This document shows, piece by piece, positions 4,568 through 48,863 of a stretch of 64,000 nt of DNA. The translations under genes and the position numbers were made by a program. Origin of the DNA: Pseudomonadota bacterium (GTDB lineage: Bacteria; Pseudomonadota; Alphaproteobacteria; Rickettsiales; SXRF01); assembly GCA_038043465.1 (NCBI GenBank), contig JBBTBX010000009.1:34710-98709 (forward strand), written 5' to 3'. The notes under the pieces are model-generated. The model was not told where the DNA came from and did not search any database. It was given only the letters and a program-made list of their open reading frames with translations. How positions within the stretch are numbered: the first letter of the stretch is position 1; the number at the start of each line of letters is the position of its first letter.

Positions 4568-4987
4568 TTATTCCCCTCCCTTAACGCGCGAAACGAATTT
4601 GGTTTTGATAGGAAGCTTGGCAGAAGCACGGTCAAACGCTTCACGGGCAACAGCCTCGCTAACACCTTCCACTTCAAACAATATGCGACCAGGAGCAACA
4701 CGTGCTGCCCAGAATTCTACAGACCCCTTACCGCTACCCATACGTACTTCGGCAGGCTTGCGAGTTACCGGCAGGTCTGGAAAAATACGAATCCACATAC
4801 GACCAACGCGCTTTACATGACGGGAAATGGCACGACGGGCAGCTTCAATCTGACGCGCAGTAATACGCTCAGGCTGCATCGCCTTCAAACCATACTCACC
4901 AAAATTCAGGGTAAAGCCACCTTTGGAGGCACCTTTAATCCGCCCTTTATGGGCTTTACGGTATTTAGTTTTTTTAGGACTCATCAT
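4568..4987 (-). CDS. rplP: 50S ribosomal protein L16
   Basis: [15 protein letters not shown] start, plus synteny. Confidence 0.97.
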
Positions 4988-4993
4988 AACTTG

Positions 4994-5686
4994 TTACTCG
5001 TTGCTAGTTGCTAGTATTTCGACAGGAACAACGTCAGCCGCTGCGTCAATCTTCTTTTCTTTACCAAGTATCTCACCTTTGAATACCCATACTTTTACAC
5101 CAATAGTGCCGTAAGCGGTTTCAGAACGAGCGATACCATAATCAATATCCGAACGCAGAGTGTGCAAAGGCACGCGACCTTCACGATACCATTCCATACG
5201 CGCAATTTCAGCACCGCCAAGACGACCGCTGACATTGATACGGATACCAAGTGCGCCAAGACGCAGGCATGATTGCACGGCACGTTTCATAGCACGACGG
5301 AAAGCCACACGCTTTTCTAATTGCTGCGCGATAGACTCAGCAATCAAAGTTGCATCAAGCTCCGGCTTCGGCACCGGCACAATATTAAGATGAACTTCAT
5401 CCTTAGTAAATTTAGCCAGATCCTTCTTGATTTTATCAATATCAGCACCTTTTTTACCAATAACCACACCAGGACGCGCAGTATGAATAGTGATATGCGC
5501 TTTCTTGGTAGGACGCTCGATCACAACCTTGCTTACGCCAGCAGCATCAAGGCTTTTCTTCAAGTAGGCCTGAATTTTATAATCTTCATGCAGCTTGGTG
5601 GCATAATCAGCACCGGCGAACCAACGCGAATCCCAAGTTTTGTTCACGCCAACACGAAAACCAATTGCGTTTACTTTCTGACCCAT
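4994..5686 (-). CDS. rpsC: 30S ribosomal protein S3
   Basis: The canonical start [13 protein letters not shown] is at 5686, just after the rplV stop (5688). The track ORF (to 5716) over-extends into rplV. Confidence 0.95.
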
Positions 5687-5687
5687 A

Positions 5688-6068
5688 TTATGCTTTCTCC
5701 TCTTTTTCACGCACAATCAGCGTCAAATTTGCAAATGGTCTGAATACACGCGCCGATTTACCACGACCACGAGTATGCATACGTTTCATTACCAGATTTT
5801 TCCCAACATACGCTTCTTTAACATAAAGAGAATCAACATTCAGGTTATGGTTATTCTCAGCGTTGGCAATTGCTGACTGCAAAGCTTTTTTTACATCTCC
5901 GGCAATACGCTTGCTGGAAAATGATAGCTGGGTAAGCGCGCCATTCACATCCATTCCACGGATAAGAGCCGCCACAAGGTTAAGCTTCTGTGGACTGATG
6001 CGGATACGGTTGATAACCGCTTTCGCTTCGTTTGGTGCTAATGCACGCTGGGTTGCTTTTTTAGACAT
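5688..6068 (-). CDS. rplV: 50S ribosomal protein L22
   Basis: [22 protein letters not shown], plus synteny. Confidence 0.96.
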
Positions 6069-27242: not shown

Positions 27243-27317
27243 TTACATCTAAACAGGTGTAAATGGAACATAAAACAACTTGTAAAAACCAGAATAGAAC
27301 AAAAGAGAGAATTATAG

Positions 27318-27426
27318 TTATTATTTTGAAGTTACTCTTGCTTCGCAGCGAAAAGTAAAATCTTTGGCGGTCTTTCGGACTCGATTTTCATAGTAATTCC
27401 GCATAATGATTATACAGAATTACTAC
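27318..27426. mobile_element. MITE-like dispersed repeat, copy A (an inverted copy is at 48763-48863)
   Basis: Contains hairpins CTTCGCAGCGAAAAG and TAGTAATTC...GAATTACTA. By eye it is about 80% identical to the reverse complement of copy B. Confidence 0.8.
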
Positions 27427-27499
27427 AACGTTTTTTGTTGAATTTATGGGTATAGGAGCATTATACTATACTTAGTATACCAATATTTTAGGAAGCAAT

Positions 27500-31622: not shown

Positions 31623-32363
31623 ATGAAAACAAAAAATACAAAATCTACTGCCGAAAGCAGTTCCGTTGATGCTGAAGAAATTGAGCGTTTCTCGCGCATC
31701 GCCGATGAATGGTGGAACGTAAACGGGAAATTTGCCCCCTTGCACAGCATGAATCCTGTTCGGATTGAGTATATTAGAGATAAAATAATAAAGCATTTTG
31801 GAGCGATGGATTCGCTATCGCTGCTGGATATTGGTTGTGGAGGCGGATTGATTGCCGAACCTATGGCACGGCTCGGAGCAAAGGTAACGGCTATTGACGC
31901 TTCGCAGAAAAATATTGCGGTTGCCAGCCTGCACGCGGAGAAAATGGGGCTAGATATTGATTATCGCTGTACCACGGCTGAGGAACTGGCGGCAAGTGGA
32001 GCGGTTTTTGATGTGGTTCTATCGCTGGAAATTGTGGAGCATGTGTCGGATATTGATTTATTCATAAAATCCGCCTGCAAGCTTTTAAAGACGGGTGGTA
32101 TTATAATTCTTTCTACTTTGAATCGTACTGTAAAATCTTATGGCCTCGCCATTATCGGCGCGGAATATATCATGCGCTTGCTGCCTATTGGAACCCATAC
32201 ATGGAATAAATTCCTGCGCCCCAGCGAATTATGCAACTTGTTGGAGCAAAACCAGATTGAAATAGACGAGCTGATGGGGATGGTGATGAACCCAATTACA
32301 TGGAAATGGCGACTGGATTCCAAGGATTTAGCGGTTAATTATCTGGTGGTGGGGAAGCGATGA
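31623..32363 (+). CDS. ubiG: Ubiquinone biosynthesis O-methyltransferase
   Basis: FSRIADEWWNVNGKFAPLHSMNPVR plus SAM motif LLDIGCGGGL. Confidence 0.93.
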   Translation: MKTKNTKSTAESSSVDAEEIERFSRIADEWWNVNGKFAPLHSMNPVRIEYIRDKIIKHFGAMDSLSLLDIGCGGGLIAEPMARLGAKVTAIDASQKNIAVASLHAEKMGLDIDYRCTTAEELAASGAVFDVVLSLEIVEHVSDIDLFIKSACKLLKTGGIIILSTLNRTVKSYGLAIIGAEYIMRLLPIGTHTWNKFLRPSELCNLLEQNQIEIDELMGMVMNPITWKWRLDSKDLAVNYLVVGKR

Positions 32364-32378
32364 TTTGTCATGCCGCAT

Positions 32379-33269
32379 TTATTGCGGCATCTGGTCTTTA
32401 TTATTGCCAGACCCCGCAATAAATGCGGGGTGACAGAACTCTCTATCATGTTGTAAATTTGGCAATTTACCACGCATTTTTGCCACTTCGCTTAAATCAA
32501 TATCAGCACTTATGATACCTTCTTCCGTTCCGCCATCAGCAATGATTTTTCCCCACGGGTCTACTACTAGCGAATGACCATAGGTTTTCCGCCCGCCAGC
32601 ATGGGTTCCGGTTTGCGCTGGAGCAATGATAAAACATCCGGTTTCGATGGCGCGGGCGCGCAGCAAAACATGCCAGTGCGCTTCTCCAGTTACCTGCGTA
32701 AAAGCAGCTGGTACGGCGATGATACCCGCCCCTGCCTTGGCTAGCGCCCGATAAAGCTGGGGAAAGCGGACATCATAACAAATCGTCATACCCAGTTTTG
32801 CCCAAGGTGTAGGAGCAATGACAGCCTTGTCACCAGCAATAATTTTAGAAGATTCCCGATAAACCTGCCCATCACCAACCTCAACATCAAACAGGTGAAT
32901 TTTATCATAATGGGACATAATTTCGCCCTCAGGGTTAAAAAGCAGCGAACGGTTATAGGTGAGAGGCGAGTGAGTTTTGAGTGCTGAGTGCTGAGTGCTG
33001 AGTATAGCAACGCTGCCTATTAGCAGCCAAATATTGTTTTTACGCGCCATTTCCGCTGAGGCTTTAACTGCCGGATGCTCATGCTGCTTATAAAAAACCC
33101 GGTCTTTTCCACTTTCTTCTATTAAAAATGTGTTTTCGGGAGTAGCGACCAGCCCTGCCCCCATGGCGGTCGCACGCTCCACCATACCCCTAACTTTAAC
33201 AATATTTTCCAGCAAATCCGCGCTACTGGTAAGTTGCAAGCACGCTATCTTTAACATATTATTTACCAA
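32379..33269 (-). CDS. Carbon-nitrogen hydrolase (nitrilase superfamily)
   Basis: E-K-C triad context: TPENTF, YDKIHLFDV and GMTICYDVRFP. Carries an in-frame heptamer-repeat insert. Confidence 0.88.
   Translation of the reverse strand: MVNNMLKIACLQLTSSADLLENIVKVRGMVERATAMGAGLVATPENTFLIEESGKDRVFYKQHEHPAVKASAEMARKNNIWLLIGSVAILSTQHSALKTHSPLTYNRSLLFNPEGEIMSHYDKIHLFDVEVGDGQVYRESSKIIAGDKAVIAPTPWAKLGMTICYDVRFPQLYRALAKAGAGIIAVPAAFTQVTGEAHWHVLLRARAIETGCFIIAPAQTGTHAGGRKTYGHSLVVDPWGKIIADGGTEEGIISADIDLSEVAKMRGKLPNLQHDREFCHPAFIAGSGNNKDQMPQ
32958..33008. repeat. GAGTGCT heptamer array in frame inside the C-N hydrolase CDS
   Basis: ...gagtgagttttgagtgctgagtgctgagtgctgagt... It encodes ILSTQHSALKTHSPLT. 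Confidence 0.85.
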
Positions 33270-35383: not shown

Positions 35384-37195
35384 CTATTTTTCAGAAAGTT
35401 TTTCCGTTTCTTCAGCTAATATCTGCTTTGCTTTTGGTGAAAGTTGCAGGTGCAATTCGCGCAGTTGCTTATCATCGGCAACATTCGGTGCTTGCATCAA
35501 TAAATCTTCTGCTTTCTGGTTCATCGGGAAGGCAATAACTTCGCGTATGTTCGGTTCATCAGCAAGGAGCATCACCATCCGGTCAACTCCCGGAGCCAAC
35601 CCACCATGCGGAGGTGCGCCGAATTTGAAGGCCGAGATCATTCCGCCGAATTTGGAATCAACCACGCCTGGACCATAACCAGCTATCTCAAAAGCTTTAT
35701 ACATCAGCTCTGGCTTGTGGTTACGAATCGCGCCCGAAGAAAGCTCCACCCCGTTGCACACAATATCATATTGATAAGCTAATATATCGAGCGGGTTTTT
35801 ATTAAGCAGTGCATCCATCCCGCCTTGTGGCATGGAGAAAGGATTATGGCTGAAAATAATTTTCTTCTCCTCTTCATCATATTCAAAATATGGGAAATCA
35901 ACAACCCAGAGAAATTTGAACACGCCTTTTTCCAATAAATCCAGTTCATTTCCTAGCTGCACCCGCACCTGCCCAGCCAGCTTTGCTGCGGCTAGTTCTG
36001 CGCCAGAGGAGAAGAAAACCGCATCACCATTTTTAACACCCGCAACCTGTTTTAGTTCAGCAAGTTTTTCCGCTGTCAGGAATTTAGCAATCGGGCTTTT
36101 CGCATCGCCATTTTCTTCAAAAATAATATAAGCAAGCCCTTGCGCGCCCATGCTCTTGGCAAATTCAATCATATTGTCGAAAAAGCTACGTGGTTTTGCT
36201 GCACAACCCGGCGCAGGAATGGCGCGAACAACTCCTCCGCCTTCAATCACTTTGTTGAAAATACCAAAGCCGGAACCGCGCCAAACTTCGGTTACATCGC
36301 TTATGATAAGCGGGTTGCGTAAATCTGGTTTATCGCTACCATATTTGAGCATCGACTCTTTATAGGTGATGCGCGGGAATGGTGTGTCAGTCACTTTTTT
36401 AGTGCCAAACTCAGTGAATACGCCGTGCAGGACTGGCTCAATCGCGGCAAAAACATCATCCTGCGTTACAAAGCTCATCTCAATATCAAGCTGATAGAAC
36501 TCACCCGGCGAACGGTCAGCACGCCCATCTTCATCACGGAAACACGGGGCAATCTGGAAATATTTATCAAAACCGGAAACCATGAGCAATTGCTTGAATT
36601 GCTGCGGTGCTTGTGGCAACGCGTAAAATTTTCCCGGATGGATGCGCGAAGGAACAAGGTAATCGCGCGCGCCTTCCGGTGAACTCGCGGTCAGAATCGG
36701 GGTCTGGAATTCGTTAAATCCTGAATCTGTCATCCTACGGCGGAGTGACGATATAACCTGCGAGCGGAGCATAATATTTTTATGGAGTTTCTCGCGGCGC
36801 AGATCAAGAAAACGATAGCGCAGGCGGGTCTCCTCCGGCTGTTCGCGGTCAGAATTAACCTGAATTGGCAGGGCATCGGCGGTTGATTCAAGTTTCATGG
36901 CAGAAACCACAACTTCAATTTCACCGGTCAGCAAATCTTTATTCGTTGTTTCGCCGGAACGGGCGACCACCTTACCTTCAACCGTAATCACGCTTTCCAA
37001 CTTAACATGAGTCAGCGTGTCAAAATGCTCGCCACCATCAGCCACCAACTGAGTGATGCCGTAATGATCACGCAGATCTATGAACAGCAAATTGCCGTGA
37101 TCGCGCTTGCGGTGAACCCAACCGGAAAGTTTTACGGTTTCACCGACATTGTTTTTAGTAAGCTGTGAGCAAGTATGAGTACGATAGGTGTGCAT
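35384..37195 (-). CDS. aspS: Aspartate--tRNA ligase
   Basis: [12 protein letters not shown]..., [14 protein letters not shown]-like motif 2 and GGLAPGVDR motif 3. 603 aa. Confidence 0.97.
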
Positions 37196-37278
37196 GATAT
37201 TTCTAACTTATCAGTTAATTGTTATTTAGCCGTTGTTAGTTAGTGTTTTTTGTGCCTTAGGTCAATTATTTTCCCCAT

Positions 37279-37374
37279 CGTCATCGCGAACCGCTATAAA
37301 GCGGCGTGGCGATCCAGATTTCTACAATTAAGGGGAATGGATTGCCGCGTTCGCTTTGCTCACTCGCAATGACG
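37279..37374. mobile_element. Palindromic CGTCAT(C/T)GCGA...CTCGCAATGACG element, copy A (intergenic)
   Basis: Terminal inverted repeats plus an inner GGCGATCCAG/TGGATTGCC repeat. Lies between the aspS start and the udg stop. Confidence 0.8.
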
Positions 37375-37386
37375 AACACCTTGTTT

Positions 37387-38016
37387 TTATGTAATAAACC
37401 GCACTTTTTCCACCACATTATCGAACATTTCCTGCGTCAGGCGGCCAGTATTCATGTTATAACGTGAGGTGTGGTAGCTGTTTAGCAAGGTAATTTTGTT
37501 ATTAATTTGATGTTCAGCACCATGCACAAATTTAGCAAAAGATGCCTTATATCCAAAGGCTTTCAGCACGGCGTTATGGGAAACTAAGCCCAGCGACAGA
37601 ATGATTTTCAGGTTTTTTATCACCGCGATTTCCGCTTTCAGGAAATTATTGCACTGGTTTATTTCCGATAGTTCGGGCTTGTTTTCCTGCGGGACACAGC
37701 GCACAGCATTAGTTACGCGGCAATTTATGAGCGTAAAACCGTCATCTGCACGTTCTTTATACTCTCCCCTCGCAAAACCGTATTTTTGCAATGAATGATA
37801 GAGAATCAGCCCTGCATAATCACCTGTAAACGGTCTGCCCGTCTGGTTCGCGCCTTTTAGCCCTGGTGCCAGCCCAACCACTAGAAACTGCGCGTCCAAA
37901 CTGCCAAAAGATGGCACTGGAGCATTAAAAAAACTGGGATACTGCTCTTTATTCTGGTTGCGAAAGCTGCAAAGCCTTGGGCAAATCTGGCAGTCGGAAT
38001 CTGGGCTGTAATTCAT
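37387..38016 (-). CDS. Uracil-DNA glycosylase, family 4/5 (Fe-S type)
   Basis: CQICPRLC..., VVGLAPGLKGANQTGRPFTGD and HTSRYN-like C-terminal motif. Confidence 0.85.
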   Translation of the reverse strand: MNYSPDSDCQICPRLCSFRNQNKEQYPSFFNAPVPSFGSLDAQFLVVGLAPGLKGANQTGRPFTGDYAGLILYHSLQKYGFARGEYKERADDGFTLINCRVTNAVRCVPQENKPELSEINQCNNFLKAEIAVIKNLKIILSLGLVSHNAVLKAFGYKASFAKFVHGAEHQINNKITLLNSYHTSRYNMNTGRLTQEMFDNVVEKVRFIT

Positions 38017-38019
38017 CGC

Positions 38020-38505
38020 TTATTTCTTTGGCTTCACTAGATTTCTTATAATGTTACAATCAAGTTTTGAACCAAATTGCTGCTTCATCAAAAGATATAT
38101 CTGTTCTACCATTTCAATCTGTTTTTCCCAGTTTTTACCCATTGATCTGGACAAGGAATATGGCACATCCAGTTTCCACTTTCCTTCTTCCTTCACAAAA
38201 AATAGGCGCAGGAAACGCTGTTTTCCAAGATCAGTTGCACTGGCGCGGATCATCACGTGACTGCCATCTTCCTTGTGCGAAACATACGCCGAATCTTTCG
38301 GCAGGCAATTCATCAAACCATATGAGGCGAAGCGGTCATATAACGAAAATGAACTGGCGGTGAATAAGTCCTTACAGCCCGCTGTATCTTCTTTTTTCAC
38401 GCAATTATTTATGCTGTCGAAAGAATCCTTGGCTGATTCCGATGCATAAACATTGCCGATAACCGACATAATCAATAATGCGGATAATAAAATTAATTGC
38501 TTCAT
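38020..38505 (-). CDS. Hypothetical secreted protein
   Basis: Signal peptide MKQLILLSALLIMSVIGNVYA. No other motif recognised. Confidence 0.55.
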   Translation of the reverse strand: MKQLILLSALLIMSVIGNVYASESAKDSFDSINNCVKKEDTAGCKDLFTASSFSLYDRFASYGLMNCLPKDSAYVSHKEDGSHVMIRASATDLGKQRFLRLFFVKEEGKWKLDVPYSLSRSMGKNWEKQIEMVEQIYLLMKQQFGSKLDCNIIRNLVKPKK

Positions 38506-38858
38506 TGTAACCTCATCCTCCAGAGAACCCCGATAAATATACCCTTAGCCCGTGGCAACACTAATATCGCCAGAATAAAAGCCAGACTAGTAAACCCAAC
38601 CACCAGCAACCAATCCGGAGTAGTTGAATCAGGAATTACTGCAAGCAACAAAGGTGCAAGAACATGCCCGACAATCATAATAGTAAGCCACGCCGGACCA
38701 TCATCAGCCCGAATATTTCCAAGATTTTCAGAACATACCGCACAATTATCAACCTGCTTAAGGTAACGAGAAAATAATCTGCCCTCACCACAATGCGGGC
38801 AGCGACCGATTATGCCGCGAATTACTACCAGCCAGAAATCAAGTGGTTTTTCTTTCAC
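38502..38858 (-). CDS. DUF983 membrane protein
   Basis: Zinc-ribbon GRCPHCGEGRLF...CAVC followed by 2 TM segments, as in DUF983. Confidence 0.8.
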   Translation of the reverse strand: MKEKPLDFWLVVIRGIIGRCPHCGEGRLFSRYLKQVDNCAVCSENLGNIRADDGPAWLTIMIVGHVLAPLLLAVIPDSTTPDWLLVVGFTSLAFILAILVLPRAKGIFIGVLWRMRLQ

Positions 38859-40189
38859 TTTGGTTTTCGCTGTTTAATTATCTGCTGCGAACGCTCAAGG
38901 GCAAGATTACCGTCAGGCACATCCTGCGTAATCACACTGCCTGCGCCGATTACCGCACCAGCACCAATTGAAACCGGCGCAACCAGCGAAGTGTTTGAGC
39001 CGATAAAAGCTTTTTCACCAATAGTGGTTTTATGTTTATTCACACCATCATAATTGCAGGTAATCGTTCCCGCGCCAATATTAGCCCCTGCCCCAACTTG
39101 CGCGTCACCAACATAGCTCAAATGATTGGCTTTTGCGCCATCACCAAGCTTGGTGTTTTTAAGTTCTACAAAATTTCCTACATGGGCATTTACACCAATC
39201 ACACTACCAGTACGCAGACGAGCAAATGGCCCAATTATTGCCCCAGATTTGATATATGCTCCCTCGATATGTGAGAATGAGCGAATTTCCACCCCAGATT
39301 CCACCGTAACCCCCGCACCAAATACCACACTCGGATGAATAATAACATCTGGTGCAATTTTTGTGTCCATCCGCAAAAATACGCTGGCAGGATCAATCAT
39401 GGTCACGCCACTCGCCATAGCCTCCTTACGCAACCGCCACTGCATAATGTTTTCTGCTTCAGCAAGCTGCTCACGGGTATTTATACCGGAAAGCTCCGCA
39501 GCTTCCGCCTCCACCACATGTGAATGTAGCCCCATATCATCAGCAAGAGCGATGATATCTGTGAGGTAATATTCACCGGCATTATTATTTACAGTAAGTT
39601 TTTCCAACAGCGGGAATAAATATCTGCCACTTACCGCCATGACTCCGGAATTGCAGAGATTAATAGCTCTCTGTTCAGGCGTTGCATCGCGTTCTTCGAT
39701 AATTTCTTCGAGTTGCCCTCTGCTATCAACAATCATGCGACCATAACCATAGGGATTTTCCATGCGCATACCCAGCACCGCTATATCAGCGGACTGCGCT
39801 GTTTCTAAAAGACGTTGCAGAGTATTAGGGGTAATAAGTGGTATATCACCATACAAAATCAAAAGCTTACCTGCGTATCCTTTTAATTCCGACTCCGTAA
39901 CTTTTAGAGCGTGACCTGTGCCAAGCTGTTGGTTTTGAATGATAAATTTTGATGATGGACTAACTGCGCCTGCTGCCTGCTGCACTGATTCCATTCCGGG
40001 GGCAACTACTATTACGGTTTTTTCAGGAGAAAGCTGAGAAACAGTAGAAATAACATGCGAAATCAATGGTATACCAGCAACTTTATGAATAACTTTCGGC
40101 AGCGAAGATTTCATCCGCGTGCCTTTTCCGGCCGCAAGTACAACACAATTGAAAGAATATTGCATTTTGTTCTTGTTTTGATTCTCCAT
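38855..40189 (-). CDS. glmU: Bifunctional GlcNAc-1-P uridyltransferase / GlcN-1-P acetyltransferase
   Basis: VLAAGKGTRMKS N-terminus and C-terminal left-handed beta-helix hexapeptide repeats. Confidence 0.96.
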   Translation of the reverse strand: MENQNKNKMQYSFNCVVLAAGKGTRMKSSLPKVIHKVAGIPLISHVISTVSQLSPEKTVIVVAPGMESVQQAAGAVSPSSKFIIQNQQLGTGHALKVTESELKGYAGKLLILYGDIPLITPNTLQRLLETAQSADIAVLGMRMENPYGYGRMIVDSRGQLEEIIEERDATPEQRAINLCNSGVMAVSGRYLFPLLEKLTVNNNAGEYYLTDIIALADDMGLHSHVVEAEAAELSGINTREQLAEAENIMQWRLRKEAMASGVTMIDPASVFLRMDTKIAPDVIIHPSVVFGAGVTVESGVEIRSFSHIEGAYIKSGAIIGPFARLRTGSVIGVNAHVGNFVELKNTKLGDGAKANHLSYVGDAQVGAGANIGAGTITCNYDGVNKHKTTIGEKAFIGSNTSLVAPVSIGAGAVIGAGSVITQDVPDGNLALERSQQIIKQRKPK

Positions 40190-40242
40190 AAAGGTAAGAA
40201 TTACCCCAAATTATGTAACTATGCAATAATGGGATTGAACAT

Positions 40243-40635
40243 ATGGATAAAATCGTTGATGTTGAGATTGGCAAACGTATAAAGCTTCGTCGTACAGTGC
40301 TGGGCTTCAGTCAGGCATACACAGCAAATGCTCTTAATTTAACTTTTCAACAAGTGCAGAAATACGAAAAAGGTATTAATTCTCTTAGCTCTAACAAATT
40401 ATATAGTTTTGCTAGCTTGTTAAGAGTCCCGGTGTCCTACTTTTTCGAAGGATTAGGAAGTGGTAGTACTAAGATAACAGCTAAGTTTGACAAAGAAAAT
40501 TCATTCGGTTCCGACCGTGAAGCGCTGGAAGTTATGAAAGTCTTTAACAAAATAGAAAGTCCTTATTTGCGAAAGAAAATGATTGAACTGTTACATCTGT
40601 TAATCGATGATGATATTAAGAGTAGAGTAAACTAA
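40243..40635 (+). CDS. XRE-family HTH transcriptional regulator
   Basis: IGKRIKLRRTVLGFSQAYTANALNLTFQQVQKYEKGINSLSSNKLYSFASLLRVPVSYFFEG. Confidence 0.88.
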   Translation: MDKIVDVEIGKRIKLRRTVLGFSQAYTANALNLTFQQVQKYEKGINSLSSNKLYSFASLLRVPVSYFFEGLGSGSTKITAKFDKENSFGSDREALEVMKVFNKIESPYLRKKMIELLHLLIDDDIKSRVN

Positions 40636-40658
40636 TAACCACAAATATTTTTAACAGC

Positions 40659-40874
40659 ATGATTTCCAGCAACATAAAATATTCTTGCAAGTACTACAGC
40701 GTAGGCTTCTTTGTTTTTATTGAATCAAACAATTCTGATTCAACGAAGCAATTTTCTATGGAACCAATCATGGAAGTGGACACTGAAGCGCAGGGAATAG
40801 AGCTAATTAACTGGTTATCAGACAATCATTTTGTAGCACGGCAAATTGCAAATATGGCAAATGATAATTACTAA
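40659..40874 (+). CDS. Doubtful small ORF
   Basis: 71-aa ORF in very AT-rich DNA. No SD or motif seen. Confidence 0.25.
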   Translation: MISSNIKYSCKYYSVGFFVFIESNNSDSTKQFSMEPIMEVDTEAQGIELINWLSDNHFVARQIANMANDNY

Positions 40875-40977
40875 CGCCGATAAATTAAATTATTTTTTTA
40901 TTTAACTTGATTTTATAATTTATAATTAAACATAATATAAATCTAAAGTTGTAGCAATATTAGCGTATATTATCTTG

Positions 40978-41748
40978 ATGATAGATTTTGTTAAATTTGT
41001 AACAGAAATGAACCGGGCAGAATGTGCAGAAGATGCATTTAATTATCTGGAAAAAACTTTATCAGATTTAGGTTTTGACAGGGTTGTTTACTCACTTATA
41101 ACCGACCACCCCAGTATGCAGTTAAAGCGTGGCCATGGTATTCTTAGAAACTATCCAGATGATTGGATGAAATATTATTTTGCAAAAAACTATTTTGAAG
41201 TAGACCCCGTAATCAAAGTTATTAAGCAGACCAGCGGTCCATTCCTATGGGAAAAGCTTCCGGAATTAAAAAACGGGTTACGGAAAGATGAAAACGTCCT
41301 GATGGAAGAAGCGCGAGAAGCCAAATTACTGGATGGGATAGGCATATCATTACATGGCGCACGCGGAGAAATCGTGGGAATGGGAATTGCCAGCAGCTCG
41401 GGAAGAACGGATATATTAAACCCGGATATGATCAGCATTGTATACGCGCTTTGTTCCCAATTTCATATAGTCTATAGAAAGATGAAAGAAAAATTACTGC
41501 CTATCATCCATCTTTCACAAAGGGAGCAGGAAGTCCTTACCTGGATTGCGGCAGGGAAAAGCAAAAGCGTAGTCGCCGATATATTGCAAATCAGCGATGA
41601 CAGCGTAAAAACCTACGTTAACAGGATTTTCACCAAATTAGAGGTGAATTCAATACAATTAGCCGTTGTAAAGGCTATTGCTATGGGGCTGATAACTCCA
41701 GATTTATGCCATAAAAATTCATCTTACCTGGAAACGTCACCCAACTAG
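40978..41748 (+). CDS. LuxR-family acyl-homoserine-lactone-responsive regulator
   Basis: Autoinducer-binding pattern (YPDDWMKYYFAKNYFEVDPV) and GerE-type HTH (LSQREQEVLTWIAAGKSKSVVADILQISDDSVKTYVNRIFTKLEV). Confidence 0.9.
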   Translation: MIDFVKFVTEMNRAECAEDAFNYLEKTLSDLGFDRVVYSLITDHPSMQLKRGHGILRNYPDDWMKYYFAKNYFEVDPVIKVIKQTSGPFLWEKLPELKNGLRKDENVLMEEAREAKLLDGIGISLHGARGEIVGMGIASSSGRTDILNPDMISIVYALCSQFHIVYRKMKEKLLPIIHLSQREQEVLTWIAAGKSKSVVADILQISDDSVKTYVNRIFTKLEVNSIQLAVVKAIAMGLITPDLCHKNSSYLETSPN

Positions 41749-41780
41749 GTGACAATACTTTTATTGTAAATAATGAGCAG

Positions 41781-41807
41781 ATTCTCCACACAATTTATTT
41801 GGAGAAT
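41781..41807 (+). promoter_or_regulatory. 8-bp inverted repeat ATTCTCCA-N12-TGGAGAAT overlapping the luxI-homologue SD
   Basis: Arms at 41781-41788 and 41800-41807. GGAG at 41801-41804 is 6 nt from ATG 41810. Confidence 0.5.
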
Positions 41808-41809
41808 TT

Positions 41810-42499
41810 ATGAACGTATATATTATTTCAATCGAAAACATGCATGAATACGGTGACATAATGCCTTCTATGCTCAGGCTGCGTCATAAGGAATTTAAAG
41901 AACGCCAGAGTTATAATATCCCTACCTTCAAAGATATGGAATATGATGCCTATGACACTCCGGCCACCGTATATGTGGTGTGGAGAGATGATGATGGAAT
42001 AGTACGTGGCTGCTCAAGGATGGCTCCAACTGACCGGGCATATATGATTCAAGATTTATGGCCGAATATAGTAACCAATATTCACCTGCCTAATAATGAT
42101 GACATCTGGGAATCTTCACGGTTTGCTATTGATAGCGATTTGCCAGCAGACATGCGTGCGCGGGTTAAATTGGAAATTCTGCAGGCTAAAATTGAATATG
42201 CTTTGGCTCTGGGGATAAAAGGAATGATAGGTGTTATGCCCCCACTCATCTGGAGAGCTGTATTTGTAAATTCTGGATGGCAAATTGATAATATTGGCCC
42301 AGTTACCACGTTAGCTAGTGGTGAAAAAATTGTAGCGGGCTGGATAAATGTTAATCCGACTATTCTTGATAATATCAGGAGCAAGACGGGTATTAGCAGC
42401 TCATTCTTAGAAAACTGCAACATACTTCAAAGAAAAATCGGGAAAGAAACACCCATTAGAAATATTAACTTTAGCAAAAAATTAGAAGGAGTAGCATAA
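41810..42499 (+). CDS. LuxI-family acyl-homoserine lactone synthase
   Basis: RLRHKEFKER...W...EYDAYD...RMAPT...WESSRFAI matches the conserved LuxI N-terminal residues. Confidence 0.88.
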   Translation: MNVYIISIENMHEYGDIMPSMLRLRHKEFKERQSYNIPTFKDMEYDAYDTPATVYVVWRDDDGIVRGCSRMAPTDRAYMIQDLWPNIVTNIHLPNNDDIWESSRFAIDSDLPADMRARVKLEILQAKIEYALALGIKGMIGVMPPLIWRAVFVNSGWQIDNIGPVTTLASGEKIVAGWINVNPTILDNIRSKTGISSSFLENCNILQRKIGKETPIRNINFSKKLEGVA

Positions 42500-42500
42500 A

Positions 42501-42821
42501 ATGGCAACATTTACGGATAGTGATATGGAATCAAAGAATATTATTTGCTGTCTAGAATTTTTATCTCAGCAAGCACTTGCCAGCCATATGTTAGCGGAGC
42601 ATTCTATTCTAAAAAACACCATTACTGAAATATCTAAGGTCGACTCTTTATGTGGCGATATAAGGCATAATGTTGAATACTCAGACATCATAACCGCCTT
42701 CAAATTCTTTACTAAATTTTGTTTAGTTGAAGACAAAGACACAAAAAAACATATCTTACATTTAATTGAAAATTTGGATGTGGATACAATGTCCAATTAC
42801 GCTAGAAATGAGATTTATTAG
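42501..42821 (+). CDS. Hypothetical protein, translationally coupled to the AHL synthase gene
   Basis: 106-aa ORF. Its ATG starts 2 nt after the luxI-homologue stop. GGAG at 42489-42492. Confidence 0.55.
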   Translation: MATFTDSDMESKNIICCLEFLSQQALASHMLAEHSILKNTITEISKVDSLCGDIRHNVEYSDIITAFKFFTKFCLVEDKDTKKHILHLIENLDVDTMSNYARNEIY

Positions 42822-42899
42822 CCATTGCTATACTCAATCTGTATAATATAGTAACTCTAAAATAATAACTGTAAAGTTATTGTTAAGACCTGCATAATA

Positions 42900-42989
42900 C
42901 GTCATTGCGAGTGAAACGAAGCAATCCATCTTTCTATGATGCTTTATTTTACTGGATTGCCGCGAAGGCTACGCCTTCTCGCAATGACG
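42900..42989. mobile_element. Palindromic CGTCATTGCGAG...CTCGCAATGACG element, copy B
   Basis: 12-nt terminal inverted repeats plus an inner GAAGCAATCCA/TGGATTGC repeat. It generates the spurious N-terminal extension of track ORF 42905-44314. Confidence 0.85.
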
Positions 42990-43045
42990 AAAAACGCGTT
43001 ATGCAGAGGTCTTTTGTTTGGAATAACTATACTTGTGAATATGAC

Positions 43046-44314
43046 ATGGAAATTACGACTATATTATTATTGGTGGCAGCTATTGCACTGGGTTTTAGTG
43101 CAGGCTGGGCATTATTTTCACGAAAACGCATAAGCCTTGCCACAAGGCTGGAAATATCGCAGCAGGAGCTGGACAGCCTGCGTGATGATTTGGAGTTTGC
43201 CAGAAGCGAACGCACCCAATTCCATGAAAAATACATAACTGCCGAAACCAAACGTGAACTATTGGAAAAAGAGCTGGAGCAGACGCAGGAAAAACTACGG
43301 GCGGAATTTAAAAATACTGCCACCAATATATTCGAGGATTTCAGCAATAAATTCACGGTTCAATCTGAGAAGAAAATTGGTGATTTGCTGAATCCGCTGC
43401 GCGACAGGCTTGGTGAATTCCAGAAAAAAATTGATGATTCTTTTAGCGCGCAGGGCAAAGAGCAGCACTCGCTGAAAGCCGAAATTGAAAAAATCGTGTT
43501 GCAGACTGATGGTCTGACGCGAGCGTTACGTGGTGATGTTAAAGCACAGGGCAACTGGGGCGAAGTTATGCTGGAGCGAATCCTTGAAGAATCAGGACTG
43601 CGCACTGGCGAAGATTATATTATTCAAGGCACGGGAATGGGGTTGAATAATGCTGATGGTGGCAGGTTGCAGCCTGATGTTATCGTGAATCTGCCTGATA
43701 AAAAACATATCATCATTGATTCAAAAGTGTCGCTCACCGCTTATGAAAGATACTGTAATGAGGGTGATGAAACACTGCGCCAGATTCAGATAAAAGAATT
43801 TGTAAGATCTATAAAAGCACATGTGAACGGCTTGGAGCAAAAGCGTTATCAGGATATTGAAAAGCTCGGCACGCCTGATTTTGTGATGATGTTCCTGCCG
43901 ATTGAAGGGGCATATTCGTTGGCTATACAGGCAGACAGCGAACTTCATTCCTACGCGTGGGGTAAAAAAATTGTGCTGGTCTGTCCTGCCACATTATTTG
44001 CCACTTTGCGTACTATCGCTTCAATCTGGCGCATTGAAAGACAGAATGTAAATGCACAGGAAATTGCCCGCCAAGGCGGCGCGTTATATGATAAATTTTC
44101 AGGGTTTCTGGGAGATATGGAGGAAATAAACAAACATATCCATAATCTCCATAAAGCCTATGATAATGCCAATAATAAGCTGGTCAGCGGGCGTGGCAAC
44201 ATATTGAATCAAGTGGAAAAATTGAAGATTCTCGGGGCAAAAACCTCTAAATCGTTGCCTAAAAGCCGAGAAGCCAACCTTGAAGAGGATATTGAGGAAT
44301 TGATGGAGGATTAA
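43046..44314 (+). CDS. rmuC: DNA recombination protein RmuC
   Basis: N-terminal TM (MEITTILLLVAAIALGF), a long coiled coil, and the C-terminal RmuC nuclease-like region (PDVIVNLP...IIIDSKVSL...FVMMFLPIEG). Confidence 0.9.
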   Translation: MEITTILLLVAAIALGFSAGWALFSRKRISLATRLEISQQELDSLRDDLEFARSERTQFHEKYITAETKRELLEKELEQTQEKLRAEFKNTATNIFEDFSNKFTVQSEKKIGDLLNPLRDRLGEFQKKIDDSFSAQGKEQHSLKAEIEKIVLQTDGLTRALRGDVKAQGNWGEVMLERILEESGLRTGEDYIIQGTGMGLNNADGGRLQPDVIVNLPDKKHIIIDSKVSLTAYERYCNEGDETLRQIQIKEFVRSIKAHVNGLEQKRYQDIEKLGTPDFVMMFLPIEGAYSLAIQADSELHSYAWGKKIVLVCPATLFATLRTIASIWRIERQNVNAQEIARQGGALYDKFSGFLGDMEEINKHIHNLHKAYDNANNKLVSGRGNILNQVEKLKILGAKTSKSLPKSREANLEEDIEELMED

Positions 44315-44318
44315 CAAT

Positions 44319-44470
44319 GTCATGCCAGAAGCCGGATTTTGTTAGATTTCTGCAAAAAATCGTTACAAAATCAGCTGTTTGGCATCCACACCAACCTTTT
44401 TCTGGATACCAGACAGCTCAGCTTTAAAGGACATTTGCAAGCAAATGTAAAAACTGGCTTCTGGTATGAC
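44319..44470. mobile_element. 152-bp element with 15-nt terminal inverted repeats (GTCATGCCAGAAGCC / GGCTTCTGGTATGAC, 1 mismatch)
   Basis: Read directly. An internal perfect palindrome ACATTTGCAAGCAAATGT lies at 44431-44448. Confidence 0.65.
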
Positions 44471-44694
44471 AAGTTCTTTATTGGTGTGGATTTTGTAACA
44501 CAGTTAGAGGTAAGCTATTACTGTACCAATATGGCATATTCAATTAAATCAATAGCTTACCGTGTAACAAAACTGTAATATTTGTAAGTCATCAAACCTT
44601 CACGAAATTGTCATCCAATTTCAAAAAAAATAGGTTATGATGAGTTTATTGAAGTAAATATAAATATGATTTTTTAGGATTTAGGAGTTTTAGT

Positions 44695-44934
44695 ATGGTA
44701 AAGGCAAATTGGGGTGAAGTTCCAATTAAGATTAAGTTAGACAGTTCTACTGCTGTAAGAGAAGCTGATGGTATATACAACCAAGAGCATTCTGCTCGTG
44801 CAAATAGGGAAGCAACGGCTAGAATAGAATTTCAGTTAGCTAAGAGCGAACCTGATAGGAACAAAGATCTTTCCGCTTCTATTCCTCCTCAAGTAGCTAG
44901 TCGCAAAAGAGATAATGGTATCTTTATCGGCTAA
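44695..44934 (+). CDS. Hypothetical small protein (orphan)
   Basis: 79-aa ORF with AGGAG 8 nt upstream. Its stop overlaps the convergent era stop by 4 nt. Confidence 0.45.
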   Translation: MVKANWGEVPIKIKLDSSTAVREADGIYNQEHSARANREATARIEFQLAKSEPDRNKDLSASIPPQVASRKRDNGIFIG

Positions 44935-45938
44935 TTTTTCCTGAACTCTAATCCTAAAGTCCGATAGCTTTCGCTATCTTCTTTCCAGTTCGGTTTTACT
45001 TTTACGAATAATTCCAGGTGGATTTTCTTATCCAGAGTTTTTTCTAACTCACGGCGGGTGGCAATTCCTATATCTTTTATCATCTTGCCTTTATCGCCGA
45101 TCACGATTTTTTTCTGGCCTTCACGCTGCACGAGTATCGCCTGCGAGATTTTTACAAAATTATCGCTTTCCTCGAAAGCTTCAGTTTCCACAAAAATCGC
45201 GTAAGGCAGTTCCTGCTCCAAACGCAGGAATATTTTTTCGCGGGTTATTTCCGCAGCAAGCAGACGCAGGGAAATATCGCTCATCTGCTCAGGCGGATAT
45301 AGCCAAGGATGAACAGGAACAATTTCGGAAAGATAAGTCACTATGTCAGAAACCCCATCGCCACTCAGTGCTGAAATCATAAATATTTTAGCAAAATTTC
45401 CGCGCTTGTCGCACTGCTCCACCAGTTCAAATAATTTGGCTTTTTCTATCGCATCAATTTTATTCAAAACCAGACAGACTGGTTTTCCCATATACTCGTC
45501 ATTGCGACTGCGCGCCGAAGGCGTGGCAGGAAGCAATCCAGAATCATCGGTATCCTTTGGCTTCTGGATTGCTTCGTCGGCAACGCCCCCTCGCAATGAC
45601 AAGGAATTTAGCTTATCTATAATCTGCAAAGTGCTGTCGCGTAAACCCCGCGTTACATCGAGTAACAGCATAACAACATCCGCGTCACCAATACCCGACC
45701 ACGCCGCCTGCACCATGGCTTTTTCAAAGTTTTTCTCAGCAGAAAAAATTCCTGGCGTGTCGATAAACACCAACTGCGAATCGGCATGCACGCAGACTCC
45801 ACGAATATTAAAACGTGTGGTTTGCACTTTGGGAGTTACGATAGAAACCTTGCCACCAACCAGGCGGTTAATCAGCGTGGATTTTCCGGCATTTGGCTCA
45901 CCGATAATCGCGATCAGTCCACATTTCTCATTACTCAT
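44931..45938 (-). CDS. era: GTPase Era carrying an in-frame insert of about 34 aa
   Basis: G1 GEPNAGKST, G3 DTPG, G4 NKID and a C-terminal KH domain. Located in the rnc-era operon. Confidence 0.95.
   Translation of the reverse strand: MSNEKCGLIAIIGEPNAGKSTLINRLVGGKVSIVTPKVQTTRFNIRGVCVHADSQLVFIDTPGIFSAEKNFEKAMVQAAWSGIGDADVVMLLLDVTRGLRDSTLQIIDKLNSLSLRGGVADEAIQKPKDTDDSGLLPATPSARSRNDEYMGKPVCLVLNKIDAIEKAKLFELVEQCDKRGNFAKIFMISALSGDGVSDIVTYLSEIVPVHPWLYPPEQMSDISLRLLAAEITREKIFLRLEQELPYAIFVETEAFEESDNFVKISQAILVQREGQKKIVIGDKGKMIKDIGIATRRELEKTLDKKIHLELFVKVKPNWKEDSESYRTLGLEFRKN
45497..45601. mobile_element. Palindromic CGTCATTGCGA...TCGCAATGAC element, copy C, inside era
   Basis: Terminal inverted repeats at 45497-45507 and 45591-45600. 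Inner GAAGCAATCCAGAA/TTCTGGATTGCTTC repeat. The reading frame stays open through it. Confidence 0.8.
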
Positions 45939-46593
45939 TATTCAATCTTTCCAATAAAATTCCTGCTGCTTCCTGTTCAGCAGTGCGCTTGGACGCAGCT
46001 TTTGCCTGCGCCGGTTCATAACCCTGTACTGCGACTTCCACGGTAAAAACCGGAGCATGAGCAAAACCTATAGTTTCCAGCAAGCGGTATACAGGAAGTG
46101 GCAACCCCCTGCCCTGCACCCATTCCTGCAAAGATGTTTTGGCATCTTTGGGAGCTACTATTGCATTTCCTGCCAGCTTTTTCCAAATTGGCACTACAAA
46201 ATCCTCAACCGCAGCAAGCCCACCATCCAGATAAATCGCACCAAGCAAAGCCTCAATAGCGTCTTCAAGATTTGATGGATTATCACGCCCGCCACTTTGT
46301 ATTTCGCTGGTGGCAATTTTCAAAGCTTCACCAAGCTTGATATCACGCGCCACTTGCGCCAGAGTTTCACCACGCACCAAGCTTGCCTGCCTGCGCGCCA
46401 ACTCACCTTCCTGTTCCTGCGGAAATAAATCATAAAGAATACGGGCAACCATAAGACCAATAACCGCATCGCCCAAAAACTCAAGCCTTTGGTTATTTTC
46501 CTGCCGAGCCAGGCTTGGATGAGTAAGAGCACGCTCGAGCAAAGATGCATTACGAAACTGGTAGCCTATGCGTTTCTGTAACGCTTCCATCAC
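45931..46593 (-). CDS. rnc: Ribonuclease III
   Basis: NQRLEFLGDAV signature and a C-terminal dsRBD. Confidence 0.97.
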   Translation of the reverse strand: MMEALQKRIGYQFRNASLLERALTHPSLARQENNQRLEFLGDAVIGLMVARILYDLFPQEQEGELARRQASLVRGETLAQVARDIKLGEALKIATSEIQSGGRDNPSNLEDAIEALLGAIYLDGGLAAVEDFVVPIWKKLAGNAIVAPKDAKTSLQEWVQGRGLPLPVYRLLETIGFAHAPVFTVEVAVQGYEPAQAKAASKRTAEQEAAGILLERLNNE

Positions 46594-48673: not shown

Positions 48674-48762
48674 TTAAATCTCTCCGCTTAGGTTTCAGGT
48701 TTATGCATATTTTGTCGAAAGGAGTGGAATTTACTCAATTATTGCTAAATTGGAAAGCTTTT

Positions 48763-48863
48763 TATAGTAATTCTGCATAATTATTATATAGAATTACTAT
48801 AAAAATCGAGTCCGAAAGACCGATTTTTCGCTGCGAAGCAAGCGTAACTACAAAATAGTAATA
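48763..48863. mobile_element. MITE-like dispersed repeat, copy B (inverted relative to 27318-27426)
   Basis: ATAGTAATTCTGCATAATTATTATATAGAATTACTAT...CGAGTCCGAAAGACCG...CGCTGCGAAGCAAGCG. Confidence 0.8.

Follow-up and report, generated by a model that had tools for sequence, protein, structure and literature searches.

In a 64-kb stretch of DNA from an uncultured alphaproteobacterium (64,000 nucleotides of contig JBBTBX010000009.1; hereafter, the window), the gene for the GTPase Era contains a palindromic element that the era reading frame passes through without interruption. Very probably, a selfish dimer of CGTC-tagged repetitive extragenic palindrome (REP) units inserted into era, survived because it was in frame, stop-free and placed in a tolerant loop, yields a disordered loop upon translation, and has begun to erode. 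In the mechanism that we propose, a non-autonomous dimer would have inserted recently at about codon 113 of era through a trans-acting activity. Since era is presumably indispensable, only a frame-keeping and stop-free insertion at a structurally permissive site could have persisted. The era copy, with a net gain of 111 nt, is open in the era frame and occupies the loop between helix 101-112 and the beta-strand 154-159 that leads to the G4 motif. It would be transcribed and translated as part of era, forming a disordered loop of about 37 residues on the protein surface, would contribute little or no function by itself, and may now be decaying, since a sister strain has lost 63 nt of it in frame.

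The REP dimer in era and its intergenic copies

The open reading frame (ORF) that hosts the element was identified as era by its motifs and by its matches to protein families. It carries G1 (GEPNAGKS), G3 (DTPG), G4 (NKID) and a C-terminal KH domain, and the NCBIfam equivalog for Era, NF000908, gave it 341 bits (cut-off, 237), with 234 bits from TIGR00436 (cut-off, 116). PF01926 and PF07650 are recorded on P0001, a protein identical to the window Era, and Era chains in the PDB matched it with E = 3e-57. The gene lies in a lepB-rnc-era operon context, and the Pfam domains Ribonuclease_3 and dsrm were found on the orthologous rnc gene. Alignment with E. coli Era (1EGA) covered residues 4-110 and 152-329 of the window Era and left approximately 37 extra residues between the helix ending in ...LNKL and the strand carrying G4, a site at which E. 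coli Era has just 4 residues. The original prediction had proposed an in-frame insertion between DTPG and NKID, and the 335-aa ORF indeed reads through the element on the minus strand (...LRGGVADEAIQKPKDTDDSGLLPATPSARSRNDE... between the two motifs; read-through ...DKLNSLSLRGGVADEAIQKPKDTDDSGLLPATPSARSRNDEYMGKPVCLVLNKID...). A tblastn search found no second Era-like gene within the 64-kb window. The coordinates of the features are collected in Table 1.

Table 1. Coordinates in the window of the REP dimers, their parts, the host gene and the adjoining gene
Feature	Position	Length	Strand	Description
Palindromic element	45496-45602	107 bp		Head-to-head dimer of CGTC-tagged REP units; in era, in frame on the minus strand, about residues 113-150 (SLSLRGGVADEAIQKPKDTDDSGLLPATPSARSRNDEY)
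REP unit B	45497-45541	45 nt	plus	CGTC tag; ATTGC...GCAAT closing stem around a GC-rich mini-hairpin; CCAG tail; fold -18.7 kcal/mol
REP unit A	45564-45601	38 nt	minus	TGTC tag variant; ATTGC...GCAAT stem; CCAG tail
Spacer between units A and B	45542-45563	22 nt	none	Stop-free in the era frame
Central segment deleted in sister strain	45530-45592	63 nt	minus	In frame; placement ambiguous by 1-2 nt
Intergenic REP dimer copy	37278-37375			Between the co-directional uracil-DNA glycosylase-like ORF (37387-38016, minus) and aspS (35384-37195, minus)
Intergenic REP dimer copy	42899-42990			Upstream of rmuC, between co-directional genes
era (GTPase Era)	44931-45938	335 aa	minus	ORF; host gene of the insertion
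rnc (RNase III)	45931-46593		minus	Directly upstream of era, overlapping the era start by 8 nt

The architecture that had been predicted for the element was recovered. Its terminal repeats, CGTCATTGCGA at 45497-45507 on the plus strand and the complement TCGCAATGAC at 45591-45600, and its perfect 14-bp inner inverted repeat, GAAGCAATCCAGAA / TTCTGGATTGCTTC at 45530-45543 and 45562-45575, hold in both coordinates and sequence, and the two further intergenic copies are present. Units A and B differ in their interior, and the era pair is thus a heterodimer. All three copies in the window are head-to-head dimers with spacers of approximately 20 to 30 nt, and every unit follows the pattern (C/T)GTC-AT(T/C)GC...GC(A/G)AT-CCA(G/T). 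The CGTC tags lie at 45497 (+), 42900 (+), 37279 (+), 42989 (-) and 37374 (-), and the TGTC variant lies at 45601 (-). A both-strand alignment yielded four blocks conserved in all three copies (CGTCATTGCGAG, GCAATCCAG, CTGGATTGC and CTCGCAATGACG), and the sharing of these motifs with both intergenic copies bears out the claim that the segment in era is repeat-derived. In addition, the 12-mer TCGTCATTGCGA with at most one mismatch had six matches in the window versus 0.43 expected, a number that none of 100 shuffles reached.

The era copy folds at -57.3 kcal/mol (z = -6.1 versus shuffles), its inner stem being a perfect 14 bp and its outer stem 12 bp, and the folds of the two intergenic copies gave z values of -6.0 and -6.35. 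The copies differed in coding capacity: four of the six reading frames are open in the era copy versus none and one in the intergenic copies, in which the stops fall mostly in the AT-rich spacers, both of which contain stop codons. No Rfam family reached its gathering score in the whole window, and nothing relevant appeared at E values up to 1 for positions 37000-46000.

CGTC-tagged REPs are defined by an unpaired CGTC, TGTC or CCTC tag at one end of the unit, a stem that opens with two A-T pairs, a CCA tail and a mostly head-to-head dimeric arrangement (Di Nocera, De Gregorio & Rocco 2013, BMC Genomics 14:522, PMC3733652). According to the same paper, they occur chiefly in Alphaproteobacteria and are present in other phyla, no dedicated transposase is known for them, and they are mostly intergenic, between unidirectional or convergent genes, with dimer spacers of 20-100 bp. 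Their canonical families CGTC-1 to CGTC-4 have stems of 8-9 bp and loops of 4-5 nt, with deviant loops in Bradyrhizobium CGTC-1, and two Rickettsia palindromic elements (RPEs) of R. conorii are among them, RPE-6 being CGTC-1 and RPE-4 being CGTC-4. In-frame intragenic REP dimers encoding 20-37 aa have been catalogued, and era is absent from that paper's table of intragenic REPs (PMC3733652). The window copies share the tag, the A-T stem start, the CCA-type tail and the head-to-head layout, and like the published repeats they are multi-copy, mostly intergenic (two of the three lie between unidirectional genes) and occasionally in frame. Because these traits match the published definition, the element is best placed, on its sequence, in the CGTC-tagged REP superfamily without a numbered family. 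Its stem, ATTGCGAG.../...GCAAT, differs from the ATTCCCGC-type stem implied by the CGTC-1 peptides (SFPRKRES / DSRFRGND). By the identities of the neighboring genes, none of the three copies has a RAYT-type (REP-associated tyrosine) transposase next to it; a screen of the window ORFs for Y1/HUH transposases was not part of this analysis.

Two further features involve these dimers. The mechanically called RmuC ORF (42905-44314) begins at a TTG inside the intergenic dimer upstream of rmuC, which gives it a spurious N-terminal extension of approximately 47 aa (MRVKRSNPSFYDALFYWIAAKATPSRNDEKRV...). The RmuC orthologue in the repeat-free relative L004 is 422 aa long, and this start artefact has probably been carried over into public annotations, which give 467-471 aa. 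For annotation it is of use to know that these repeats produce false N-terminal extensions, as at the RmuC start, and small ORFs. At the era copy, positions 45596-45623 form a promoter-like site on the plus strand, antisense to era, which agrees with 11 of 12 consensus positions and is a consensus match only. Its -35 element, ATGACA, comes from the TGTC-variant end of the REP dimer, TATAAT follows 16 nt later, and the site would transcribe towards rnc.

Gain, erosion and structural position of the insert

The nearest insert-free Era proteins (P0003-P0007) are 297-300 aa long and are 84-89% identical to the window Era (87-89% over core columns). Because orthologues as close as these have no such element, the parsimonious reading is that it was gained in the window lineage, and the segment is most simply taken as a recent repeat insertion and not as an ancestral Era loop. 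The original prediction had argued the same, and the orthologue alignment agrees with it: P0003-P0007 lack the segment within a conserved lepB-rnc-era-rmuC synteny. The relative L004 keeps the order ilvC-lepB-rnc-era-rmuC-...-udg-aspS, and none of the three REP copies is present there. The L004 empty sites of the two intergenic copies were too diverged to align.

Identity with the window is 100% both for NCBI contig CAYOOL010000006.1, which belongs to the metagenome-assembled genome (MAG) GCA_964405605.1, and for an independent Logan assembly. A sister strain, represented by L001-L003 from JGI and ENA samples, is approximately 96% identical to the window at the DNA level. It carries both intergenic copies in the same places as the window, and its era copy is shortened by 63 nt. 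The deleted nucleotides span one unit's interior together with the spacer and the inner stem, leaving the remnant TTGTCATTGC joined to CTGCC...GCAATGACGAG in an Era protein of 314 aa (P0002). Both outer tags are kept in this remnant, indicating a deletion from a dimer and not the primary insertion of a monomer. The insert is also altered by amino-acid substitutions in two further alleles, V to N in P0121 and both A to V and T to I in P0122, and each of these alleles keeps the frame. Three stages are thereby caught in closely related genomes, namely the empty site, the full dimer and the 63-nt in-frame deletion. Elsewhere in the family, the 337-aa Era P0123, from the cluster of P0007, has a 38-aa N-terminal extension (MSNKKNPPSSSRPVGGKATAQDLNKIARDPAQERSSSQ) without counterpart in close relatives; a repeat lying upstream or a wrongly called start probably accounts for it.

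Comparison of era between the window and L003 gave 49 synonymous and 7 non-synonymous differences, which correspond to a dN/dS of 0.035. This ratio, the occurrence of the same allele in independent assemblies and the location of the insert in a loop predicted to be disordered indicate that the insert-bearing era is a functional gene under purifying selection. The low ratio against the sister strain and the identical allele in independent assemblies are at odds with a pseudogene, the outcome that the original prediction had named as fatal to it.

An AlphaFold2 model of the window Era, built from an 18-sequence alignment, had a mean pLDDT (predicted local distance difference test) of 68 and matched Era crystal structures with a Foldseek E value of 1e-25. 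The insert (residues 114-150) had pLDDT values below 50, with block means of 26-29 for residues 121-150, between the confident helix 101-112 and the confident strand 154-159; structure prediction thus places it as a disordered loop between these two elements. In the Ras-like fold, the NKxD motif stands at the C-terminal end of its strand. Because the insert loop enters this same strand, the order of secondary structures and the Ras-fold topology predict that the loop lies across the domain from the nucleotide pocket and the switch regions, on the opposite face.

Several points weigh against the recent insertion of a selfish CGTC-REP dimer into a tolerant loop of an indispensable gene. The insertion boundaries are limited by the nearest era empty site, which is 11-13% diverged at the protein level. 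We infer the retention of the insert in mRNA and protein by analogy to RPE-1, as cited in PMC3733652. An insert-free second era may lie outside the 64-kb window, and its presence would weaken the argument from an essential gene. As for the family, the window units are 30-45 nt long and have a 5-bp closing stem with an inner GC-rich mini-hairpin, in contrast to canonical units, in which a stem of 8-9 bp closes a loop of 4-5 nt, and the peptides encoded by the window copies (SLRG...SRNDE) are unlike those listed for CGTC-1, -3 and -4.

Repeated colonization of one Era loop and competing explanations

The loop that carries the insert has been lengthened in other Era proteins as well. Among 126 related Era proteins, all internal insertions of at least 6 aa (11 proteins) were found at positions 112-114 of the insert-free reference and none elsewhere. 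Across 150 diverse Era representatives, positions 99-112 held 11 of the 19 internal insertions of at least 8 aa, and long, probably organellar, Era homologues are also expanded in the same loop. The inserts at this loop remain as stretches of 9 to 47 aa and include at least two unrelated dispersed palindrome families. In P0041 (locus L130) and P0032 (locus L132), the insert is a GGGAGGGG-type palindrome with a fold of -80 to -95 kcal/mol, an arm of which recurs elsewhere on the same contig; in P0031 (locus L131) it is another perfect palindrome, at -74 kcal/mol; and in P0008 (locus L127) it is a 72-nt segment missing from the 97%-identical P0007. The nearest neighbors of every insert-bearing Era protein are insert-free, thereby indicating at least five independent events: the window clade, P0008, P0031, P0032, P0037/P0041 and probably P0094.

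This clustering could also arise if the sequence or structure of the DNA at the era site attracted palindromic repeats, with no need for selection after insertion to pick out a permissive site. The occurrence of at least five independent insertions within 2-3 codons of one another is in line with such targeting, as is the base preceding the tag, which is T at five of the six unit ends in the window. However, the CGTC REP dimer, the palindrome of GGGAGGGG type and the 72-nt P0008 insert are unrelated in sequence, and a shared target is not expected of them. The same region is, moreover, the commonest one for ordinary indels across diverse Era proteins, as expected of a permissive loop. We consider DNA-level targeting distinctly unlikely. 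Given that unrelated elements colonize the site and that the DNA of the empty sites lacks conservation across lineages, the hotspot is better explained by selection for a permissive loop than by targeting. The lengthening of one Era loop by unrelated repeats would give concrete support to selfish palindromes as a source of loop-length variation that is filtered by structural tolerance.

The stability of the fold raises the question of whether the hairpin has been exapted at the RNA level, as an RNase III substrate or a ribosome pause in the era message that couples era expression to RNase III. A fold of -57.3 kcal/mol (z = -6.1) with 14-bp inner and 12-bp outer stems would suit this role, and the RNase III gene itself, rnc, is directly upstream and overlaps the era start. 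Precedents exist, since RNase III cleaves the Correia elements of Neisseria and other hairpins of REPs or of MITEs (miniature inverted-repeat transposable elements), and the E. coli rnc-era operon is autoregulated by RNase III. However, the sister strain lacks the whole inner stem and is left with a hairpin of -29 kcal/mol, indicating that the full structure is dispensable. Furthermore, the stems are broken by the junction and are shorter than the approximately two helical turns favored by RNase III, and most relatives carry no insert. These observations make RNA-level exaptation very unlikely. A bolder combination, which we regard as unlikely, is that the Era loop before the G4 strand is a recurrent landing pad for unrelated palindromes in Alphaproteobacteria (at least five events in about 120 protein clusters), with insertion and erosion as the main route of length change, and that the window hairpin in addition makes the era mRNA an RNase III substrate and so creates a new rnc-era feedback.

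At the protein level, the added loop might have become functional in Era, for instance by touching the 30S subunit or a partner in a new way, and might be kept by selection. The insert is kept in frame in several strains, and the expansion of the same loop in several other lineages and in the long, probably organellar, homologues could be read in this way. Nevertheless, the segment is predicted to be disordered (pLDDT of 26-29 for residues 121-150), a 21-aa deletion is polymorphic between strains of approximately 96% nucleotide identity, and the amino-acid changes of P0122 are commoner inside the insert (2 of 36 residues) than outside it (4 of 299). The inserts of other lineages are also unrelated in sequence. 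We therefore regard protein-level exaptation as highly improbable. The disorder predicted for the loop, the deletion allele and the low dN/dS of era argue both against it and against a pseudogene or artefact. Misassembly typically occurs at sites such as this one, a palindrome within an essential gene of a metagenome-assembled genome. Nonetheless, an assembly chimera or a pseudogene is largely refuted by the identical sequence in the NCBI MAG and the independent Logan assembly, the presence of the protein on 7 contigs, the intact 335-aa ORF with all Era motifs, the dN/dS of 0.035 and the point differences within the insert in related alleles.

With respect to the insertion of a selfish REP dimer into era, no paper linking era to palindromic or REP insertions was found in the literature. 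The use of era as host gene, the host lineage, the series of empty, full and eroded sites, and the colonization of one loop by unrelated palindromes appear to be unreported. The finding extends in-frame palindromic repeats to a universally conserved ribosome-assembly GTPase and to a lineage other than Rickettsia.

Locus L132 holds further partial copies of the GGGAGGGG-type palindrome found in the Era protein P0032 (4745-4768, 5101-5123 and 13824-13861). Two palindrome copies in this locus are inside a recO-like ORF (4601-5716) and may be another intragenic case.

Relation to known repeats and distribution in other genomes

Rickettsia palindromic elements, RPE-1 to RPE-8, were reportedly described by Ogata et al. 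in Science in 2000 and in Genome Res in 2002. The era copy resembles these palindromes of approximately 100-150 bp in that it lies in frame in a conserved gene, in a loop that the fold is predicted to tolerate, and would likewise be retained in the product. The family of the window is also found in a genome of the Rickettsiaceae (Candidatus Tisiphia, L080). The window host, in contrast, is an uncultured alphaproteobacterium outside Rickettsia, with approximately 44% GC, a luxI/luxR pair and ilvC. The peptides from all six frames of the era copy are unlike those of R. conorii RPE-6/CGTC-1 (SFPRKRES...LDSRFRGND, VIPAKAGI) and RPE-4/CGTC-4 (VIPWLDHGI, DTVVKPRYD), and the sole resemblance is a terminal ...ND, which derives from AATGAC(G). 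Judged from these listed peptides, the element does not appear to belong to RPE-1 to RPE-8. The analogy with Rickettsia RPEs drawn in the original prediction is apt. The CGTC REP superfamily, of which RPE-4 and RPE-6 are members, is already known inside genes (PMC3733652). In kind, the case is the phenomenon of Rickettsia RPEs (Ogata 2000) and of intragenic REPs (Di Nocera 2013; Delihas 2011), and no new type of element or mechanism is revealed.

MITEs and REP-type repeats are occasionally fused to ORFs, and intragenic REPs have been described (Delihas 2011). The window element shares with MITEs such as Correia/NEMIS, RUP and Nezha a short, non-coding and multi-copy nature, terminal inverted repeats (11-12 bp here, CGTCATTGCGA / TCGCAATGAC(G/A)) and stable RNA hairpins. 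It differs from them in consisting of two head-to-head REP hairpins and not of terminal inverted repeats around a core. No direct repeat was found in the flanks of the three copies (CCCCAT ... AACACC, ATAATA ... AAAAAC and ATATACT ... AGGAAT), and this absence of a target-site duplication argues against a classical MITE. No cognate insertion sequence with matching ends is reported for CGTC REPs in the literature, and no parent insertion sequence was searched for here.

The pattern TGGATTGC-N5-30-TCGCAATGAC occurs in at least 120 stretches of a species-representative genome collection, and the matches listed are mostly from Alphaproteobacteria. Those matches include Bradyrhizobium, sphingomonads, Rickettsiales (including Candidatus Tisiphia), Micavibrio, Legionellales and Comamonadaceae, and also Bacteroidales, Helicobacter, Melainabacteria, Elusimicrobia, spirochaetes and Firmicutes. 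To judge from these pattern matches, the repeat family is spread across phyla and is not genome-specific. The commonest unit elsewhere is the 30-mer CGTCATTGCGAGCGAAGCGAAGCAATCCAG. The pattern was also present in at least 120 viral or proviral contigs of IMG/VR (L135-L214 among them), including one giant-virus MAG (L194). These matches may be host DNA within prophage calls, or viruses may be a vehicle for the cross-phylum spread of the nearly invariant 30-mer.

In a survey for further copies inside coding sequences, 120 sampled loci from other genomes held 82 dimers of 66-135 bp. Twelve long ORFs span sampled dimers, all of them in loci of 59-71% GC, and 10 of the 12 were scanned against Pfam. 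Domains were found in two of the scanned ORFs (LipA and EamA), with the dimer upstream of the domain in both, so that neither counts as truly intragenic, and not one of the 82 dimers falls between the Pfam domains of a genuine protein. Intragenic copies thus seldom survive what must be a strong filter, which agrees with the literature. A comparison of the insert peptide with a protein collection was uninformative, as no candidate shared three 5-residue words with the query.

Other repeats and a gene island were also noted in the window. A different REP-like head-to-head dimer with TGTC tags (TTGTCATGCCGCATTTATTGCGGCATCTGG ... CCAGACCCCGCAATAAATGCGGGGTGACA) lies at 32366-32435, where the ORFs 31623-32363 (+) and 32379-33269 (-) converge, and it extends over the 3' end of the second ORF. 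An AT-rich repeat of approximately 115 nt occurs at 27312-27428 and 48762-48861, in both cases between divergent genes and with 89-92% identity, and a partial third copy is present at 42850-42874. Within this repeat is the palindrome TAGTAATTC..ATAAT.ATTAT..GAATTACTA; the repeat may serve as an operator or promoter module common to its sites. Finally, positions 41810-42499 and their neighbors, between rmuC and glmU, encode a LuxI-type autoinducer synthase, a LuxR-type regulator and small ORFs. This small island is present in the window and in L001/L128 and absent from the syntenic L004, and is thus a lineage-specific feature beside a REP copy.

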